This document shows, piece by piece, positions 5,556 through 37,143 of a stretch of DNA of 64,000 bases (the stretch's first letter is position 1; each line of letters starts with the position of its first letter). Under the pieces are notes generated by a model, which saw only the letters and a program-made list of their open reading frames with translations, made no database searches and was not told the DNA's origin. The DNA is from Alkaliphilus sp. Its GTDB lineage: Bacteria; Bacillota; Clostridia; Peptostreptococcales; NVVX01. The stretch lies in the NCBI GenBank assembly GCA_002733545.1, contig NVVX01000001.1, positions 45,099 to 109,098 on the forward strand, read 5' to 3'. The position numbers and the translations under genes were made by a program.

Positions 5556-6524
5556 ATGAAGAATTATCTCATAAGGAGATTAATACAAACTCTACCCGTT
5601 TTGTTAGGTATAACGATAATTGTATTCACACTAGCAAACGCTGCTCCAGGAAATCCTACTTCTAATATGATGGATCCCACAATGACAGCAGCAGAGAGAG
5701 CCCGTATTTTAGAAAGATTTGGTATGAATCAGAGTGTTACTGTAAGGTATGTAAACTGGCTTAGAGAAATAGTTTTTCATAGAAATTTGGGTCATTCAAC
5801 AACTTTTATAGTACCAGTTGCGCAGGTAATAGGGGCCCATATGTGGAATACTTTCTATTTATCAGCAGTGGCACTAGCCATTAGTTTGTTAATAGGTATC
5901 CCCGCGGGGGTAATCTCTGCTACTAAGCAGTACTCAATAAGAGATGGAGGTTTGACAATCTTTTCTCTAATTGGAATTTCTATGCCATCTTTCTTTTTTG
6001 CTTTACTTCTTATTAAATGGTTTGCAATTGACCGGCAAATACTACCTATGGCTGGTATGAGCCAACCTGGCATGATTGATATTGGAGGTTGGGAGTATAT
6101 AAAAAATGTAATGTTGCATACCGTGTTACCAGCTATTGTACTAGGATTAGGATCAACCGCTGGATTCATGAGGTATACAAGATCTAGTATGCTTGAAGTT
6201 ATAAGACAAGATTATATAAGAACAGCAAGAGCCAAGGGTTTGGGTGAAAGAATTGTAATATATAAGCATGCTCTAAGAAATGCAATGATTCCTATAATCA
6301 CACTTTTAGGGTTCTGGATACCTGGTTTGTTTTCAGGAGCATTCATTGTAGAGAGCATATTTGCATGGCCTGGAATGGGGACTATTGGACTAAGAGCAAT
6401 AAGCGATAGAGATTATTCTCTGTTGATGGGAGTGTCTTTCTTCCTATCTTTTTTAACACTTTTAGGAAACTTAACTGCCGATATTTTATATGGATTTGCT
6501 GACCCGCGAATTAAGTACGATTAA
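5556..6524 (+). CDS. oppB: Oligopeptide ABC transporter permease OppB
   Basis: RBS AGGAGG. N-terminus MKNYLIRRLIQTLPVLLGITIIVF and the block YIRTARAKGL are typical of OppB/DppB permeases. Confidence 0.92.
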   Translation: MKNYLIRRLIQTLPVLLGITIIVFTLANAAPGNPTSNMMDPTMTAAERARILERFGMNQSVTVRYVNWLREIVFHRNLGHSTTFIVPVAQVIGAHMWNTFYLSAVALAISLLIGIPAGVISATKQYSIRDGGLTIFSLIGISMPSFFFALLLIKWFAIDRQILPMAGMSQPGMIDIGGWEYIKNVMLHTVLPAIVLGLGSTAGFMRYTRSSMLEVIRQDYIRTARAKGLGERIVIYKHALRNAMIPIITLLGFWIPGLFSGAFIVESIFAWPGMGTIGLRAISDRDYSLLMGVSFFLSFLTLLGNLTADILYGFADPRIKYD

Positions 6525-16425: not shown

Positions 16426-16599
16426 ATGCGTAATGAAAAGAGTTTTGAACAAATGAAAGAGGAGTTTATTCAAGCAAACTTAGATGCTAAAATTGACATG
16501 TACAAAACAGCAGAAGGACTTTCAGTCGATCAATTTAAGCAACTACTAAAGCATTTTCCCATTCAGCACATTGATAAACTAGAAAGAGCATTGAGTTAG
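16426..16599 (+). CDS. Hypothetical small helical protein (57 aa)
   Basis: Strong RBS TAGGAGGT 7 nt before ATG 16426. The longer track form from 16360 has no RBS. Confidence 0.5.
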   Translation: MRNEKSFEQMKEEFIQANLDAKIDMYKTAEGLSVDQFKQLLKHFPIQHIDKLERALS

Positions 16600-16745
16600 A
16601 ATCAAAATAATAGTATAGCAAATGAAAATGGAGACGCTTCTCTTGACATGCTTTGCTTAGGATTTTGATTTCTACGTATGGAAATATCAAGGGACGTTCC
16701 GTTTCATATGTTATCTGTATAGTTCTTGCAAGCTGGAGGTTTGAT

Positions 16746-17756
16746 GTGAACAAGTCAGAAATTTTTTTAGAAAAAATGATTAAACAAATTAGATGCTATA
16801 AAAAAAACAGATCTAATAGCAGAAGATTTAATGCGTACTACCTGAGTAATAAAGAAGACTTGAGAAATAATATAGCTAGAAAAATTGATTATGTTGTTAT
16901 AAGAGTATTCATTTTACTGTCTATTTTTGTAGTGGTTTTTTTGAGTTTGAAAAATATTGTAAATTCATTTTTTGTTGCCAGTATTTTTCTAAGCATATTT
17001 CAAATTATTACTATAAGAAAACGCAATAAAATGCTATCTTACCAAAAAAAGTATAAGCGAAGACTTGTGGCGAGTCAGAAAGTATATAAAGATATTATAA
17101 ATAAGCCGATGGAAGAGTTAAAAAAATATATAGTAGAAATTTTGCAAAAGAGCGATTTAAGAGATATAGAAGAATTAATGTCAAATAGCAGTAACTTTAC
17201 ATATAATGCGACGTATAAAAATGAAATAATTTCTGTTTCTTTTTTTATCTATAAAGTAGACTATCTTATAGAATTAAAAGAATTGAAAGAATTTCTTTTT
17301 AATTCAAAAAATAATAAGGTAAACAAAGGGATCGTTATCACCACTTCAGATTTTACAAAGGATTGCTACGAATTAACAAATGAAATATCAAAAAACTATA
17401 AGTTGTTACTAATTAATAAGGAAAAATTAATAATGCTAATTGAAAGTGGCGATATGTTTCCGACAGAAGAAGAAATAGACGAAAGCATAGAAGAGATAAT
17501 ACATAAAAAATTTAAAACTCCAGAAAAATACAAAACAGTACTATTTAACGAAACTAAAATAAAAAAATACTTATCTTTGAGCTTTTTTTTATTTATTTTG
17601 TCTTTTTTTACGCCATATATTATCTATTATATGTCAGCAGCGGGTTTTACATTTGGCTTAGCATGTGTTACGTCTATACTTAAAGTAAAAAACATAAGAG
17701 AAAACACAAAAAAATGTTCAGATGAAGATGAAAGACTGCTAGATTTAGACACGTAA
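16746..17756 (+). CDS. Hypothetical membrane protein with a restriction-endonuclease-like (Mrr_cat-like) central region
   Basis: GTG 16746 lies 6 nt after TGGAGG. TM pairs occur near both termini. The central block KGIVITTSDFTKDCYEL resembles the conserved Mrr-type motif. Confidence 0.45.
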   Translation: MNKSEIFLEKMIKQIRCYKKNRSNSRRFNAYYLSNKEDLRNNIARKIDYVVIRVFILLSIFVVVFLSLKNIVNSFFVASIFLSIFQIITIRKRNKMLSYQKKYKRRLVASQKVYKDIINKPMEELKKYIVEILQKSDLRDIEELMSNSSNFTYNATYKNEIISVSFFIYKVDYLIELKELKEFLFNSKNNKVNKGIVITTSDFTKDCYELTNEISKNYKLLLINKEKLIMLIESGDMFPTEEEIDESIEEIIHKKFKTPEKYKTVLFNETKIKKYLSLSFFLFILSFFTPYIIYYMSAAGFTFGLACVTSILKVKNIRENTKKCSDEDERLLDLDT

Positions 17757-29235: not shown

Positions 29236-30774
29236 ATGCAATTAGAAAAATTGTTGAAAAACGTACAAAAAATAAATATAGTTGGAAAAGCCGAAATAAA
29301 CATAGAGAAGATTTGCTATGATTCTAGAAAAATAGAAAAAAACGACATGTTTATATGCATAAAAGGATTCGAGCATGACGGACATTTATTTATTGAAGAG
29401 GCAATAGAAAATGGTGCTACTGTTATTGTTGTTGAAGCAGGGCACAAATGGAAACACAAGGGGACGGTTCTCTTGTGTCTCTCTAAAAGGACACAACAGG
29501 ACACAAGAGAACCGTCCCCTTGTGTTTCTCTTCCTACAATAGTGTATGTAGAAGATACAAGAAAAGCGATGGCAGAGATAGCTAATAATTTTTATGAAAC
29601 TCCTAGTGCTAAGATGAAAATAGTAGGGATAACAGGGACTAATGGAAAGACGTCGGTCTCGTATATGCTTATGGACATACTGAAAAAAAATGGGAACAAA
29701 TCAGGCTTAATAGGAACTATTTCATATACTACAGGCAAAGCTAAACAAACTGCTATGAGGACAACACCAGAATCTATAGACTTGAATAGATTATTAAATG
29801 ACATGGTCGTTAATAATATGGATAGTTGCGTTATGGAAGTATCTTCTCATTCATTAGAGTTGGACAGAGTATGGGGAATTCATTTTAATGTTGGAGTTTT
29901 TACTAATCTCTCATCTGACCACTTAGATTTCCATGGAAATTTAGAAAACTACAAGAATGCAAAGAAAAAACTATTTACTAAAACTGAGCAATTTAATGTG
30001 ATAAATATTGATGACGAAGTAGGAGCAGAAATAGCAAAAGAATTTGACAAATTATCAACACCAGTATTGACGTATGGTATAAATAGTTGTGCTAGTATTT
30101 ATGCCAAGGAGATTAAGCTTACAAACTTGTCAGTGGATTTCGACCTTGTTACACCTACGTTTAATACTAGAGTTAGAATTAATACCCCAGGTTTGTTTAC
30201 AGTATACAATGCGCTTGCTGCTATTTCTAGTGCATACGCCCTAAAGATCTCTGAATCTGCAATTGTTAAAGGCATAACAAGCTTTAGAGGAGTTCCGGGA
30301 AGATTTATGAGAGTGCAAGAATTTAATGAAATTTCTGTAATAGTTGATTACGCACATACTCCCGACGGATTATTGAATGTGCTAAACACAATAAATGCTT
30401 TCAAAAAGAATAGAATTATCACTGTCTTTGGATGTGGTGGAGATAGAGATAAGAAAAAAAGATCTGTCATGGGTAGAATTGCTGGCAAATTGAGCGATTT
30501 TACAATTATAACATCAGATAATCCTAGGTCTGAAAAAGCAGAATTAATAGCATCAATGATAGTAGAAGGAATAAAAGAAACAGATGCTAATTACAAGGTC
30601 ATTCTAAACAGAAAAGACGCAATCAATTATGCAATAAAACATGCAAAAGTAGGAGATACTATTTTAATTGCAGGTAAGGGACATGAAACGACGCAAGTTG
30701 TTGGAGAGAAGACACTCTATTTTAACGATACAGAAACCGCAATTTTAGTGGGTAGAGAAGAGGGTATTATATGA
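29236..30774 (+). CDS. murE: UDP-N-acetylmuramoyl-L-alanyl-D-glutamate--2,6-diaminopimelate ligase MurE, carrying an in-frame repeat insertion
   Basis: GITGTNGKTS; DYAHTPD; and GCGGDRDKKKR followed by DNPR, typical of MurE. The ORF is intact at 512 aa despite the palindromic insertion. Confidence 0.93.
   Translation: MQLEKLLKNVQKINIVGKAEINIEKICYDSRKIEKNDMFICIKGFEHDGHLFIEEAIENGATVIVVEAGHKWKHKGTVLLCLSKRTQQDTREPSPCVSLPTIVYVEDTRKAMAEIANNFYETPSAKMKIVGITGTNGKTSVSYMLMDILKKNGNKSGLIGTISYTTGKAKQTAMRTTPESIDLNRLLNDMVVNNMDSCVMEVSSHSLELDRVWGIHFNVGVFTNLSSDHLDFHGNLENYKNAKKKLFTKTEQFNVINIDDEVGAEIAKEFDKLSTPVLTYGINSCASIYAKEIKLTNLSVDFDLVTPTFNTRVRINTPGLFTVYNALAAISSAYALKISESAIVKGITSFRGVPGRFMRVQEFNEISVIVDYAHTPDGLLNVLNTINAFKKNRIITVFGCGGDRDKKKRSVMGRIAGKLSDFTIITSDNPRSEKAELIASMIVEGIKETDANYKVILNRKDAINYAIKHAKVGDTILIAGKGHETTQVVGEKTLYFNDTETAILVGREEGII
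29442..29528. repeat. REPIN-like palindromic element inside murE: two degenerate 10-mers plus exact 29-bp inverted arms (29451-29479 / 29500-29528) with a 20-nt spacer
   Basis: Left arm gaaacacaaggggacggttctcttgtgtc. The right arm is its exact reverse complement. Each arm is itself a 7-bp-stem mini hairpin: ACACAAG-GGGACGGTTCT-CTTGTGT. Confidence 0.9.
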
Positions 30775-32291
30775 TACAACTAACAATTGAGAGCATTGTA
30801 AATGCGTGTAATGGAATAATAATCCGTAAAGGCGCTAACAACTATATCAAGGGTATTTCAACAGACACACGTAGGATACAACCAGAGATGTTGTTTATTC
30901 CATTAGTAGGTGAAAACTATGATGGACACGACTTTGTTATAGATGCGAGCAAAAAAGGAATTTACGCTACTTTAGTAGAAAAGAACAAGAAACTTACATT
31001 CTTAAATGAATTGGAGAACATCTATGTTATAGAGGTTGAAAACACACTTAAAGCTCTAAAAGACATCAGTAAAAAGTATAAAGAGCGTTTTCAAATACCA
31101 TTCATTGCCGTAACAGGCAGCAATGGCAAGACATCTACTAAGGATATGATTAGCGCAGTTTTGTCTTCAAGATACAAAACTCTTAAGAGTGAAGGCAATT
31201 TTAATAATCAAATAGGTTTACCTCTAACATTGTTTAATTTGGATAAATCTCATGAGTTCGCAGTTTTAGAGATGGGAATGTCGTCATTTGGAGAAATAGA
31301 AGGTCTAGTTGACATAGTTAATCCAAATATAGCTGTGGTTACAAACATTGGCATGGCACATATTGAAAACTTAGGAAGTAAAGAGAACATAATGAAAGCA
31401 AAAATGGAAATATCTAAAAATCTATCAGAAGAAGATATTCTATTATTTAACGGAGATGATGAGTACTTAAAGTCTATACAACACAAGGAACACATGGAAC
31501 ACATGGAACACATGGGGACGGTTCTTCTGTGTTGCTCTGAACTTGATTGCAACAACACAGAAGAACCGTCCCCGTGTGTTCAACAGAACGACACAGAAGA
31601 ACCGTCCCCTTGTGTTCCAAGATATAAAGCTATCAGTTTTGGAATGGATAAAACTAATGACTTTTATCCTGAAAAAATATATGATTTAGGGGATAAAGGA
31701 GTTGCTTTTGATATACTCATTAATAGGGAGACAGAAAAATTCTACATAAAGCAACCCGGATTACATAATGTTTATAATGCCTTAGTTGCAATTTGGGTAG
31801 GGCTGTTTTATGAAATTACACCTAAAGAAATAAACAAATCCCTACATTCATATATACCAACAAAAATGAGAATGGAAATAATAGAAAATAACAATTGTAA
31901 AATTATTAATGATTGCTACAACGCTAGCCCCAATTCTATGAAAGCAGCTTTGTCTGTATTAGCAAACTCAGTTGGAAAAAGAAAAATAGCAATTTTAGCT
32001 AATATGTTAGAAATGGGAAGATTTTCTGAAAAAGGACACCGATTTGTAGGAAAATGTGTAGCTGAGAATAAGATTGATATTTTGATAACTGTCGGCGAAG
32101 AAGCTAAATGGATAGCTGACGAAGCGAAAAACGCTGGACTTGATAAAAGAAATATATTTAAGGTTGGCAAAATTCAAGAAACAAACCTACTCTTACTAGA
32201 AATTATCAAGCAAGGGGATACTATATTAGTCAAAGGTTCAAGAGGTATGCAAATGGAAAATATTGTCCAACTTTTACTAGAGAGGTGCTAA
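30771..32291 (+). CDS. murF: UDP-N-acetylmuramoyl-tripeptide--D-alanyl-D-alanine ligase MurF, carrying an in-frame repeat insertion
   Basis: Start overlaps the murE stop by 4 nt. VTGSNGKTSTKDM, NFNNQIGLPLTL, DCYNASPNSM, VKGSRGMQME. Confidence 0.93.
   Translation: MIQLTIESIVNACNGIIIRKGANNYIKGISTDTRRIQPEMLFIPLVGENYDGHDFVIDASKKGIYATLVEKNKKLTFLNELENIYVIEVENTLKALKDISKKYKERFQIPFIAVTGSNGKTSTKDMISAVLSSRYKTLKSEGNFNNQIGLPLTLFNLDKSHEFAVLEMGMSSFGEIEGLVDIVNPNIAVVTNIGMAHIENLGSKENIMKAKMEISKNLSEEDILLFNGDDEYLKSIQHKEHMEHMEHMGTVLLCCSELDCNNTEEPSPCVQQNDTEEPSPCVPRYKAISFGMDKTNDFYPEKIYDLGDKGVAFDILINRETEKFYIKQPGLHNVYNALVAIWVGLFYEITPKEINKSLHSYIPTKMRMEIIENNNCKIINDCYNASPNSMKAALSVLANSVGKRKIAILANMLEMGRFSEKGHRFVGKCVAENKIDILITVGEEAKWIADEAKNAGLDKRNIFKVGKIQETNLLLLEIIKQGDTILVKGSRGMQMENIVQLLLERC
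31480..31618. repeat. Same repeat family inside murF: four tandem 9-mers (AACACAWGG), one forward core unit (31506-31534) and two reverse core units (31553-31581, 31590-31618)
   Basis: gaacacatggggacggttcttctgtgttg pairs with caacacagaagaaccgtccccgtgtgttc with one G-U. A third unit is gacacagaagaaccgtccccttgtgttcc. Confidence 0.9.
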
Positions 32292-33313: not shown

Positions 33314-34699
33314 ATGTTTTTAGCAGATAAAAGAATACTGATTATAGGATTAGCAGTAACTGGGGTGCCATTGGTGAAAGTATTAAGTAAACTAGGTGCA
33401 AAAATAGTAGTAAATGATATGAAATCTAGAGAAAAGTTAGAAGAATCAATTTTGGAACTCGAAGACTATAAAATAGAATATATTCTTGGAAAACACCCAG
33501 CCAGTCTCGATGAAATTGGTCATATTGACTTAGTAGTTGTTTCTCCAGGAATCCCACTAGAGATTCCTTTCATCAAAAATATTATTAATAATCAAATTGA
33601 GATTATAGGAGAAATTGAACTTGCATATAGATTAACAAAAGCAAGTATAGTAGCCATAACCGGTACTAATGGAAAAACAACTACAACTGCATTGATTGGA
33701 GAAATTTTCAAAAAAGCAAACTTGAAAGCGCATATTGTGGGAAACATTGGAGTTGCAGCTATTTCAAAGGCACTAGAATCTAAACCTGAGGACGTTATGG
33801 TTATGGAAGTGAGTAGTTTTCAACTAGAGACCATAGTAGAATTTCATCCTAAGATATCAGTTTTGCTTAATATAACATCTGACCACCTAGATCGACATAA
33901 GACTATGCAAAATTACAAAAATGCGAAAGCTAATATATTTAATAAGCAAAATAGTAATGATTATGCTGTAATTAATTTTGATGATCCTTTAGTTAGAGAA
34001 ATGAGCAAAAAAATTACTGCAAAGAAAGTTTTTTTTAGTAGAAAGAAGATATTAAATGAAGGGATTTATGTTGAGGACGACAATATCGTAATTTTTTTCG
34101 GAAAAAAAGTAAGGGTAATACAAATTGACAAACTAAAAATACTAGGAAAACACAATCTAGAAAATGCCTTAGCTGCTACAGCTATTGCATATATAATGGG
34201 TATTGAAGCCAGCGCAATTAAAGATACATTAGAAACTTTTGAAGGAGTTAAGCATAGACTTGAATTTGTTGACACTATAAATGGTGTTAAGTTTATTAAT
34301 GACTCAAAAGGTACTAACCCGTGTGCATCTATTAAGGCAATTGAAGCTGTAAAAAAACCAATTATATTAATAGCTGGAGGGATGGATAAAGGTGGAGAGT
34401 TTAGAGAGTTCGTCAAAGCATTCGCTGGTAAAGTAAGTAGGATGTTAGTTTACGGAGAAACTACAGATAAATTATACTGTGCAGCATTAGAAGAAGGTTT
34501 CATAAAAGTGCAGAAAGTATGTGATTTAGAAAAGGCAGTGCGTGTTGCTTTCGAAAATTCTACTTCTGGAGATACAATATTACTTTCACCAGCGTGCGCT
34601 AGCTGGGATATGTATTCGAATTTTGAAAAAAGGGGAGAACATTTCAAAGAAATAGTTTCATCAATAAGGGGTGCTGTAATTGAAGAAAAAAAATCCTAG
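33314..34699 (+). CDS. murD: UDP-N-acetylmuramoylalanine--D-glutamate ligase MurD
   Basis: ATG 33314 gives MFLADKRILIIGLAVTG (Rossmann N-terminus). The track start at 33209 overlaps mraY. ITGTNGKTTT and DSKGTN. Confidence 0.92.
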   Translation: MFLADKRILIIGLAVTGVPLVKVLSKLGAKIVVNDMKSREKLEESILELEDYKIEYILGKHPASLDEIGHIDLVVVSPGIPLEIPFIKNIINNQIEIIGEIELAYRLTKASIVAITGTNGKTTTTALIGEIFKKANLKAHIVGNIGVAAISKALESKPEDVMVMEVSSFQLETIVEFHPKISVLLNITSDHLDRHKTMQNYKNAKANIFNKQNSNDYAVINFDDPLVREMSKKITAKKVFFSRKKILNEGIYVEDDNIVIFFGKKVRVIQIDKLKILGKHNLENALAATAIAYIMGIEASAIKDTLETFEGVKHRLEFVDTINGVKFINDSKGTNPCASIKAIEAVKKPIILIAGGMDKGGEFREFVKAFAGKVSRMLVYGETTDKLYCAALEEGFIKVQKVCDLEKAVRVAFENSTSGDTILLSPACASWDMYSNFEKRGEHFKEIVSSIRGAVIEEKKS

Positions 34700-35798
34700 T
34701 GACTCAACAATAACTCTTGTAGTAGCTTCTCTTGTAGCTATAGGCGTGATAATGGTTTTTAGTTCAAGTTTTGCGTATGCACTAGTTAATATGAATGACG
34801 GATACTTTTTTTTAAAAAGAGTTAGTATGTGGGCAGTTATAGGCTCTATATCAATGTATATTTGTGCTAAAATTCCATACCGCCAATGGAGCAAATTTGC
34901 TAATTTGATACTACTTATTAGCATAGGACTGCTAATAACCGTTTTAACACCAATAGGTACAGAAATCAACGGAGCCAGTCGGTGGATAGTCATAGGTGGA
35001 ATTTCTATTATGCCTTCTGAAATTGCTAAATTTGCTGTAATTATATTTATTCCAATAAGTATTCATAGAAAAAAAGAAACAATCAGGACTTTTTCAAAGG
35101 GAGTAATGCCATATTTACTTATAATTGCTGTTTTTTTCATATTAATATACGAGCAACCAGATTTGAGTACTGCTTTTGTAGTGGCAGTAGTAATAATGTC
35201 AATGCTTTTCGTTGGCGGAATGAGAATGCTGCATTTTGTAACATTGGCTGGTATAGGATTAACGAGTATAGGTGCTATGGTTACATATTTGCTAATGAGT
35301 GGTGATGGGCATATTGCAAGGAGAATAACTTCATTTCTAGATCCTTGGGCAGATCCTCTAGGAAGTGGATTTCAGGCAATACAATCATTACTAGCTTTGG
35401 GAGCGGGAGGTTTGTTTGGTAGAGGGCTTGGCAGAAGTGTTCAAAAACAATTTTACTTGCCAGAACCACAAAATGATTTTATCTTTGCAATTATAGGTGA
35501 AGAACTAGGCTTTATAGGCTGCGTAACGATTTTATTGTTATTTGTTTTATTAATTTGGAGAGGAATAAGAATTGCAATAAATGCTCCTGATTTAGTAGGA
35601 TGCCTAATGGCAACTGGGATTGTTACAATGATAACGGTTCAAGTTATAATTAATGTAGCAGTTGCAACTTCTTCAATGCCTGTTACAGGAATGGCATTAC
35701 CGTTTATAAGTTTTGGAGGGAATTCTCTAGTAATATTCATGGCATTGATAGGAATTTTACTAAACATATCCAAGTATTTGACTAGCGAAGGTGGGTAA
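34680..35798 (+). CDS. ftsW: SEDS-family peptidoglycan polymerase FtsW/SpoVE
   Basis: TTG start overlapping the murD end. About 10 TM helices. GASRWI, PSEIAKF, LPEPQNDFIFA, PFISFGG. Confidence 0.9.
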   Translation: MKKKNPSDSTITLVVASLVAIGVIMVFSSSFAYALVNMNDGYFFLKRVSMWAVIGSISMYICAKIPYRQWSKFANLILLISIGLLITVLTPIGTEINGASRWIVIGGISIMPSEIAKFAVIIFIPISIHRKKETIRTFSKGVMPYLLIIAVFFILIYEQPDLSTAFVVAVVIMSMLFVGGMRMLHFVTLAGIGLTSIGAMVTYLLMSGDGHIARRITSFLDPWADPLGSGFQAIQSLLALGAGGLFGRGLGRSVQKQFYLPEPQNDFIFAIIGEELGFIGCVTILLLFVLLIWRGIRIAINAPDLVGCLMATGIVTMITVQVIINVAVATSSMPVTGMALPFISFGGNSLVIFMALIGILLNISKYLTSEGG

Positions 35799-35889
35799 AG
35801 TGTAACACCTGTGAAGTTTACTCATATTATAACTATGTATTTCATTATACTTTTTCTTAATATGAACAATATTTTGGAGGTGTTTGCAG

Positions 35890-37143
35890 ATGAGCAAGTA
35901 CATTATTGTTGGTGGAAACAAAATTGAAGGAGAATTAAGTATACAAGGGGCAAAAAACGCGGTGTTGCCGCTAATTGCTGCTACTGTGTTAAATAGCAGT
36001 ACGAACATAATACATGACATACCTGAAATAACAGATGTTGAAATAATGATAAAAATATTAGAATCGCTAGGATGTACTGTGAAAAGAGAAAACAAAACGC
36101 TAATTGTTGATTCATCTAGGCTACATAATTATGAAATACCAGAAGTGTACGTAAGAGAAATGAGATCGTCAATAGTATTTTTAGGTGCGATGCTATCAAG
36201 ATTTGGAAAAATAAAAGTAAGCTATCCAGGAGGATGTGAAATTGGTTCAAGACCAATTGATTTACACTTAAGAGCTTTAAAGCAAATGGGTGCAGTTATT
36301 GAAGAAAAACATGGTTTTATAGTATGTGAAACTGTAAACTTAAGAGGATGTGAAATTCAATTAGATTTTCCTAGCGTTGGAGCAACTGAAAATATAATGC
36401 TAGCAGCAGTGCGTTCTCGTGGAACAACAGTAATTAGAAATGCGGCTAGAGAACCTGAAGTCATTGAGTTAGGCAATTATATTAATGCTATGGGAGGAAG
36501 AGTGTTCGGTGCAGGAACCGCAACTATTTTCATACATGGCGTAGAAAAATTACATGAGATTGAATACAAAATCATCCCAGATCGCATAGTTACAGGCACA
36601 TATTTGATTGCTGCAGCTATAACTGGTGGAGAAATTCTTCTCAAAAACGTTGTTCCTGATCACTTACAGTCTGTTGTTTCGAAGCTAAGAGAGACCGGAT
36701 GCATAATTAGAAGTGATAAAAATTCGATTGAATTAAAAACACCTAGAAAGCTTAATTCCCTCGAATCAATTAAAACACTTCCATATCCCGGTTTTCCGAC
36801 TGACATGCAGTCACAAATGATGGCATTAACAACAATTTGTGATGGAACAAGTCTATTTATTGAAAATATTTTTGAAAGTAGATACAAACATGTGAATGAA
36901 CTAATAAGAATGGGTGCAAACATTATACTAGATGGCAGAGTCGCATTAGTTAAGGGTGTGAAAAAATTAACTGGTGCAAGTGTCACTGCAAGAGATTTGA
37001 GAGGGGGGGCATGTCTACTTTTAGCTGGGTTAGCAGCAGAAGGAGAAACAGTTTTAGAAAATGCTCATCATATTGAAAGAGGATACGACAACATACACAA
37101 AGACATTTCAAAAGTTGGAGGAAATATAGTTAAAATACAATAG
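35890..37143 (+). CDS. murA: UDP-N-acetylglucosamine 1-carboxyvinyltransferase MurA
   Basis: RBS GGAGGTG before ATG 35890. GAKNAVLPLIAA, GGCEIGSRPIDLH (catalytic Cys loop), GFPTDMQ. Confidence 0.93.
   Translation: MSKYIIVGGNKIEGELSIQGAKNAVLPLIAATVLNSSTNIIHDIPEITDVEIMIKILESLGCTVKRENKTLIVDSSRLHNYEIPEVYVREMRSSIVFLGAMLSRFGKIKVSYPGGCEIGSRPIDLHLRALKQMGAVIEEKHGFIVCETVNLRGCEIQLDFPSVGATENIMLAAVRSRGTTVIRNAAREPEVIELGNYINAMGGRVFGAGTATIFIHGVEKLHEIEYKIIPDRIVTGTYLIAAAITGGEILLKNVVPDHLQSVVSKLRETGCIIRSDKNSIELKTPRKLNSLESIKTLPYPGFPTDMQSQMMALTTICDGTSLFIENIFESRYKHVNELIRMGANIILDGRVALVKGVKKLTGASVTARDLRGGACLLLAGLAAEGETVLENAHHIERGYDNIHKDISKVGGNIVKIQ

Follow-up and report, generated by a model that had tools for sequence, protein, structure and literature searches.

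We describe a perfect palindrome lying in frame within murE, the gene for UDP-MurNAc-tripeptide synthetase, in a 64,000-nt stretch of an Alkaliphilus sp. genome (contig NVVX01000001.1 of assembly GCA_002733545.1, positions 45,099 to 109,098; this whole stretch is hereafter termed the window, and coordinates follow its numbering). We consider it probable that the palindrome is a doublet resembling a REPIN, i.e. two inverted repetitive extragenic palindromic (REP) sequences, belonging to a family of hairpin units of about 25 nt linked to a transposase similar to REP-associated tyrosine transposases (RAYTs), and that it is tolerated in frame by its host gene. A sequence-only reading of this DNA had proposed a REPIN-like mobile element inserted in frame in the manner of Rickettsia palindromic elements (RPEs), and this proposal is supported, since none of the three outcomes that it named as refuting occurred: distant MurE orthologues carry no homologous peptide at the site, the core motif recurs, both in the window's murF and in other genomes (at least 118 stretches), and independent assemblies agree.

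The two arms of the palindrome are, as originally described, exact reverse complements (29 nt each, 100% complementary), and with the 20 nt between them the element totals 78 nt (Table 1). The left arm reads GAAACACAAGGGGACGGTTCTCTTGTGTC, and either arm forms a mini hairpin of its own, likewise visible in the sequence, in which the stem ACACAAG / CTTGTGT encloses GGGACGGTTCT. The folding energy of the murE hairpin is -58.1 kcal/mol as RNA (z = -10.2), with a 31-bp stem (-58 kcal/mol), and -35.5 kcal/mol as DNA (z = -10.3), well outside what chance would give. The second of two degenerate 10-mers reported ahead of the element (aaacacaagg) coincides with the 5' end of the left arm, showing that part of the 5' stem has been duplicated in tandem. 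The open reading frame (ORF) of murE is confirmed to stay open across the element, where it reads ...VVEAGHKWKHKGTVLLCLSKRTQQDTREPSPCVSLPTIVYVED..., and the complementary strand had also been described as stop-free: 4 of the 6 frames of the 78-nt element are open, two of three on each strand, and the remaining two stop within the spacer. No stop codon interrupts a lone repeat unit in any of its six frames, a property shared by 4% of its shuffles and 1.5% of 29-mers drawn from the window (33% GC). Because the units are stop-free, spurious antisense ORFs run over them at 29316-29504 (62 aa) and 31250-31558 (102 aa) on the reverse strand (…HKRTVPLC…, …HRRTVPMC…). A scan of 29300-31800 against Rfam 15 at a permissive threshold returned only generic models of long-hairpin miRNA precursors, far below gathering, and the murE and murF elements thus correspond to no known RNA family.

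A second, composite element, not mentioned in the sequence-only reading, lies in frame in murF and shares one element frame with that of murE (GTVLLC ... EPSPCV). In the window, the 12-nt core matches 7 times against 0.66 expected and the 25-nt unit 5 times against 0 expected, with no further copies beyond these two elements (5 units in all). Tandem duplications of the 5' stem, 9-10 nt in period, stand directly upstream of the '+' unit in both murE and murF, pointing to slippage, or to more than one round of cutting and rejoining, at that unit end. Assembly errors can yield perfect palindromes by mis-joining or chimerism, yet JGI, Logan and NCBI assemblies, which are independent of one another, agree exactly on the murE-murF DNA, three other genomes hold diverged orthologous copies, and the reading frame is kept; the independent assemblies and the orthologous copies refute an artefact, the chance of which we regard as negligible.

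Table 1 Features of the murE and murF elements in the window
Feature	Position	Strand	Description
murE, UDP-MurNAc-tripeptide synthetase	29236..30774	+	512 aa, intact ORF containing the palindrome
Two degenerate tandem 10-mers	29442..29461	+	gcacaaatgg (29442-29451), aaacacaagg (29452-29461)
Left arm	29451..29479	+	single repeat unit in '+' orientation, core GGGGACGGTTCT at 29460-29471, fits family consensus
Spacer, loop of the long hairpin	29480..29499	+	20 nt, not conserved in the orthologous element of L125
Right arm	29500..29528	-	single repeat unit in '-' orientation, exact reverse complement of the left arm
murF	30771..32291	+	506 aa, intact; the closest relative's MurF, which has no insert, is 464 aa
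Three tandem 9-mers	31481..31507	+	acacaagga acacatgga acacatgga, copying the 5' stem of the following unit; translated ...HKEHMEHMEHM
murF element, '+' unit	31508..31532	+	25-nt unit match
murF element, first '-' unit	31555..31579	-	25-nt unit match
murF element, second '-' unit	31591..31615	-	tandem copy of the right arm

Species-representative genomes were scanned with CANGGGGACGGTTCTNNTGTG, and all counts given here are lower bounds. At least 118 stretches, drawn from about 83 species-level assemblies that belong mostly to Bacillota, contain the 25-nt unit ACACArGGGGACGGTTCTyyTGTGT. Carriers among the matches listed include Oscillospiraceae, Acutalibacteraceae, Syntrophomonadaceae, Pelotomaculum, Desulfotomaculum and relatives, Acetobacterium and Tissierella, together with Alkaliphilus pronyensis, three Alkaliphilus metagenome-assembled genomes (MAGs) and two Bacilli (Litchfieldia, Aquibacillus). 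The consensus of the 313 units that these stretches contain is gaACACArGGGGACGGTTCTyyTGTGTy, and the flanks are not conserved. The stem is genuine: compensatory double changes occur at pairs -7:19 and -5:17 to -2:14 (at -5:17, for example, C:G 180 times, G:C 26 and A:T 23). Of the inner pairs, 2:10 is G:C in 97% of units and 1:11 is a G.T wobble in 92%, and the inner wobbles imply that the unit hairpin is strand-specific, forming well on one strand only. We rejected pair -1:13 as a stem pair, as its covariation is not significant (P = 0.11), and treat it as a tolerated mismatch. Two further sets of matches were set aside: six singleton matches in viral contigs, all lacking the ACACA stem, which we attribute to chance and which give no sign of phage carriage, and L012:6495-6519, from a Dehalococcoidia MAG, a chance match inside ClpP (…ASMGTVLLCAGAKGKR…) that is not a family member.

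Pairing and location follow the pattern expected of REP sequences. Among the matches listed, adjacent inverted units stand in the order '+ then -' 49 times and '- then +' once, a fixed polarity, and 60 cases of direct tandem units occur. Only 13% of the units listed fall well inside ORFs of 200 aa or longer, whereas random positions drawn from those loci do so in 60% of cases, and the family is mainly extragenic. These observations bear on the idea that the insert is a native, lineage-specific loop of MurE in which the palindrome is incidental. An insert does occur at the same position in four related MurE proteins, yet the 25-nt unit is also found in murF, in the murG of a relative and in the many stretches of other genomes, mostly outside genes; MurE P0003 reads the units in other frames; conservation resides in the nucleotides of the arms and is absent from the spacer peptide; and the loop is predicted to be disordered. 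We therefore regard a native loop as extremely improbable, and as refuted by the family occurrence, shared consensus and extragenic bias of the units.

Further evidence for a REPIN-like doublet comes from a gene associated with the units. We clustered all ORFs of the at least 118 stretches and scored the adjacency of protein families to units. A sole family recurrently adjoins them, with 9 genes at 8 loci and a median distance of 17 nt among the matches listed. In every complete case (L014, L029 twice, L051, L064 and L116) the gene stands between a '+' unit and a '-' unit, so that the polarity of the units around transposase genes equals that of the doublets. The encoded proteins, of about 250 aa, pass the Pfam model Y1_Tnp with 54-61 bits (cutoff 23), and their top NCBIfam model is REP-associated tyrosine transposase (REP_Tyr_transpos, 72-75 bits), IS200 reaching only 18. 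Both the HUH motif (NHIHLL, HxH) and the tyrosine motif (RYIHQNP) are visible, and a C-terminal extension of about 110 aa ends in a region resembling a helix-turn-helix (HTH), ...LSIRQISRLTGVS..VVRK. Locus L029 holds a diverged pair of RAYT-like genes (536-1270, 245 aa, and 2166-2909, 248 aa), which lie 900 nt apart, each with its own + / - units. The check for a RAYT or IS200-type gene suggested in the sequence-only reading came out positive in the 8 loci of other genomes and in an Alkaliphilus MAG (L065:2-197) in which the C-terminal part of a RAYT-like gene lies at a contig edge, 26 nt from two '-' units; the 64-kb window holds none. The transposase is the likely mobiliser of the units.

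The resemblance to REPINs and RAYTs extends to several features. As in the described systems (PMC2817692, PMC3116915), the units are short hairpins, inverted doublets with a variable spacer fold into a long hairpin, the arms are more conserved than the spacer, the copies are mostly extragenic and form clusters and tandem arrays, and inverted units flank a Y1/HUH transposase gene (the REPtron layout); a lineage from which the system may have disappeared likewise shows decayed copies. However, REPs and REPINs have been described almost entirely in Proteobacteria, whereas the present family is found in Bacillota, and REPINs are typically lineage-specific, while this unit is nearly the same across many Bacillota families. 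It also lacks the GTAG or CGTC tag: no GTAG occurs in the unit consensus, and CGTC is present only within the loop on the complementary strand, not at the stem end. The transposase differs as well, in its length of about 250 aa, its extra C-terminal HTH-like region and a score just under the NCBIfam RAYT cutoff.

A closer comparison may be TIRtrons and their TIRYT transposases (PMC3733652), which largely equal TnpA_REP subclass 2.1 (PMC6006769). These share with the present family a RAYT-like Y1 transposase with a C-terminal extension, flanking inverted repeats that start with a G-run (GGGGWSAS, compared to GGGGACGG here), and repeats that also occur single, dimeric or clustered around the genome. 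The match is inexact, as GGGGACGG fits GGGGWSAS at 7/8 positions, position 7 being G rather than A in 311/313 units. Examples given there include S. maltophilia, Koribacter versatilis and other Acidobacteria, P. putida and P. fluorescens, and a term search of its text found no mention of Firmicutes or Clostridia. RAYT subclass 2.1 carries a C-terminal HTH (PMC6006769), and no REP-like sequences were reported around its genes (Quentin 2018, PMC6006769); in contrast, the flanking repeat described here is a self-complementary hairpin with a dispersed population. The C-terminal domain of subclass 2.1 is Bac_DnaA_C / HTH_23 / HTH_28-like (PMC6006769); the matches of the present extension, all sub-threshold, are to other HTH models. 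Group 1 RAYTs of Bertels are stated to be 'also found in the Clostridia' (PMC5581495), and term searches for Firmicutes or Clostridia in RAYT and REPIN papers returned Clostridia only in passing mentions. The elements do not fit the definition of classical miniature inverted-repeat transposable elements, DDE transposase derivatives with terminal inverted repeats and a target-site duplication, in that the murF site shows no duplicated flank and the associated gene is of the Y1 rather than the DDE type.

RPEs are palindromic repeats of about 100-150 bp that lie in frame in functional, even essential genes and are translated as extra surface peptide segments; no associated transposase is known for them. 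The murE and murF elements resemble them as in-frame palindromic insertions in genes that remain functional. They are set apart from RPEs, as these are described, by the different organism group, a presumably unrelated sequence and the shorter length (78 nt), and in-frame copies are a minority of what is here a mainly extragenic family. Intragenic REPs have also been noted occasionally, above all in genes for replication and repair, dnaE and recB among them (PMC3733652); the present family is similarly found in dnaE, dnaG and a RecD-like helicase gene of other genomes, although the repeat families and hosts differ, and here murE, murF and murG of a Gram-positive lineage are involved. In-frame insertion of REPs or RPEs is an already established phenomenon, while the repeat family itself is apparently undescribed: literature searches with the motif and its complement returned only coincidences with eukaryotic primers, and an incomplete literature search, which leaves a prior description possible, found no account of the motif or of a Gram-positive REPIN-RAYT system.

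The host protein is MurE. Its homologues are named UDP-MurNAc-L-Ala-D-Glu--2,6-diaminopimelate ligase and contain the Pfam domains Mur_ligase, Mur_ligase_M and Mur_ligase_C, and every invariant column of a 62-sequence MurE alignment is retained. A structure predicted with AlphaFold2 using this alignment has a confident fold, with a mean predicted local distance difference test (pLDDT) of 88.8 and a predicted template modelling (pTM) score of 0.87, and template modelling (TM) scores of 0.73-0.88 against solved MurE structures. Residues 70-97, which correspond to the insert, form the sole segment of the model with pLDDT below 50, and are placed in the N-terminal domain between strands 61-67 and 101-105. 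Several alignments to solved MurE chains begin past the insert, at about residue 97-107, and the single alignment printed is gapped there. The model thus predicts an extra, disordered surface loop, which the enzyme probably tolerates.

Relatives of the window lineage allow the history of the insertions to be followed. In the 62-sequence alignment, MurE orthologues at most 56% identical to the window protein have a short linker and no insert, as the sequence-only reading had stated for other MurE proteins, and the insert is present, at the same position, only in the three closest relatives (91, 75 and 69% identity). In L125 (75%) the murE doublet is intact; in L126 (91%) the core is mutated to GGGGAATGTTCT and the right arm has a 12-nt in-frame deletion; and in L127 (69%; L127:2380-2493) a doublet is nested within a doublet (+,+,-,-), the inner one being read in different frames (GDGSFV, NRPLVF). 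The murF element occupies one site in the window, L125 and L127, and L126, the closest relative, has a clean empty site (...KSIKLQKL|RYRAISFG...). No target-site duplication is apparent at murF on comparing the empty L126 site with the filled sites of the window, L125 and L127. The private arm variant TCTTCTGTG is common to the murF copies of the window and L125, as is a portion of the spacer, which indicates that these copies are orthologous; in L126, which is sister to the window lineage, an in-frame deletion must consequently have removed the copy. Additionally, L125 carries a third in-frame doublet, in murG (L125:17231-17290, gene 16515-17660), and the window has no murG between ftsW (34680..35798) and murA (35884..37143). 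In-frame decay, nesting and loss in these relatives suggest that the murE and murF inserts may be translated, as a disordered loop of about 25-30 residues (GTVLLC...EPSPCV), and that they may be selectively near-neutral for the enzyme.

Conservation between the window and L125 is concentrated in the arms. Host genes are 78-80% identical at the DNA level and four-fold sites 57-60% identical (saturation 32%), whereas the arms are identical at 98/104 positions (P = 4e-5 even against 0.80) and the murE spacer cannot be aligned. Arm identity, set against the drifting spacer and the lost copy, indicates that, as nucleotide sequence, the arms are kept close to the family consensus, whereas the loop they encode can be dispensed with. 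At unit position 12, both arms are C in the window and both are T in L125.

This pattern admits a second account, which we regard as possible but doubtful, and which departs from a REPIN-like system only on whether that system is still active here: the copies may be old, immobile REPIN remnants whose transposase has been lost, the symmetry of the murE copy being kept by templated repair within the palindrome or by gene conversion rather than by transposase activity or recent insertion. The matched C and T at position 12 fit such arm-to-arm correction, neither the window nor the 21-kb L125 locus holds a transposase gene, and all copies seen in this clade are intragenic despite plentiful intergenic DNA in the window. 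The sister lineage L126 shows a mutated core, the 12-nt deletion and the loss of its murF copy, in agreement with published decay of REPINs following RAYT loss (bioRxiv 10.1101/2021.07.10.451892). However, across a four-fold-site divergence of 40% the arms are conserved far past the neutral expectation, nesting in L127 and the duplicated unit in the window murF represent continued repeat dynamics, and a transposase fragment lies beside units in an Alkaliphilus MAG.

Arm conservation could alternatively reflect exaptation, with the hairpins of murE, murF and murG kept for a role in the host, for example as a double-stranded RNA stem of 29-31 bp that serves as an RNase III processing or stability site tuning the transcript of the division and cell wall (dcw) cluster, or as a DNA site linked to replication or recombination. 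In favour of this, the 31-bp RNA stem is highly stable (-58 kcal/mol), conservation is stronger in the arms than in the coding sequence around them although the protein can do without the loop, and three independent events in the clade all fall in one operon. Yet in the closest relative, whose murE and murF are both intact, one copy has been lost together with half of the second, the same repeat family enters unrelated genes elsewhere, and homogenisation of a repeat family also predicts conserved arms; we judge an exapted structure to be quite unlikely.

Returning to a REPIN-like doublet, we propose the following sequence of events. The doublet consists of two inverted copies ('+' then '-') of the hairpin unit, and, since units flank the transposase gene in the same + ... 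- polarity, doublets look like gene-less miniatures of the transposase cassette. The transposase may recognise the unit as a strand-specific hairpin of single-stranded DNA, which it would cut and rejoin, and by analogy to TnpA_REP and IS200/IS605 (PMC2817692, PMC3116915, PMC6006769) this would move doublets without target-site duplication. Most copies lie between genes; where one enters a surface loop that tolerates it and adds a multiple of three nucleotides, the gene could remain functional, since none of the six frames of the unit contains a stop codon. Insertions of this kind into murE and murF would have taken place in an ancestor of this Alkaliphilus-like lineage, and the inserts would since have evolved in the manner of repeat DNA and not of protein, with arms that stay near consensus and a spacer that drifts. 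Units also duplicate or nest, and in one lineage the murE element has decayed and the murF element has been cleanly lost.

Several observations weigh against this interpretation. Both tags that mark the described REP superfamilies, GTAG and CGTC, are missing from the unit; the transposase score of 75 for REP_Tyr_transpos is just under the NCBIfam equivalog cutoff of 80; and Pfam finds only sub-threshold HTH matches in the C-terminal extension (E 0.016-0.16). By tblastn there is no transposase gene in the 64-kb window, so that activity in this organism is unproven, nor does the transposase match the dcw loci of the relatives, including the 21-kb L125 locus, the fragment in L065 being the only one found. 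Furthermore, all copies seen in this clade are intragenic (in murE and murF, and in murG of L125), unlike the family at large, and we infer translation of the insert solely from conservation of the reading frame.

If a REPIN-like system is accepted, REP/REPIN biology, which has been studied almost only in Proteobacteria, would extend to a large and sharply defined Firmicutes family with a likely transposase. An orphan RAYT-like group would thereby be linked to a repeat population, addressing the published gap that no REP-like sequences surround RAYT subclass 2.1 genes (PMC6006769). A broader proposal, which we consider unlikely, is that this represents the first Gram-positive system of the REPIN-RAYT type, supplying repeats for HTH-bearing RAYT-like transposases and persisting in murE, murF, murG, dnaE and dnaG, with hairpins that, their arms having long been under nucleotide-level constraint in this lineage, perhaps play a host role in the dcw cluster (e.g. 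as an RNA processing site). The elements also offer natural cases of mobile DNA in essential genes, in which the unit lacks stop codons, the sites are surface loops and copies nest or are lost in frame, and such inserts could be useful for studying how proteins tolerate insertion and how repeats drive protein evolution. In annotation the family is a hazard, as it gives rise to spurious antisense ORFs, odd peptides (GTVLLC/EPSPCV/GDGSLV/RTVPLC) and lengthened conserved enzymes in Firmicutes, and its units can be masked once the family is recognised.

The gene order around murE in the window is that of a standard dcw cluster (mraZ, rsmH, PBP, murE, murF, mraY, murD, ftsW). In-frame copies in other genomes were counted after excluding long ORFs over units in L077, L062 and L108, which are probably non-genes or have units upstream of the true start. 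Such copies occur in the genes for orotidine 5'-monophosphate (OMP) decarboxylase (pyrF, L080), an amidase (L063), an ABC transporter (L085), and both a molybdoenzyme of the xanthine dehydrogenase type and an M20 peptidase in L030. In-frame doublets are additionally present in DnaG primase and a RecD/PIF1-like helicase of L053 (1415-1483, 5380-5734), a MAG labelled Prevotellaceae (Bacteroidota), which may reflect either spread beyond Bacillota or contamination of the bin. Finally, the dnaE gene of L124, encoding DNA polymerase III alpha, carries four units in frame, and at 5679-5886 these show the same +,+,-,- pattern as the murE gene of L127.

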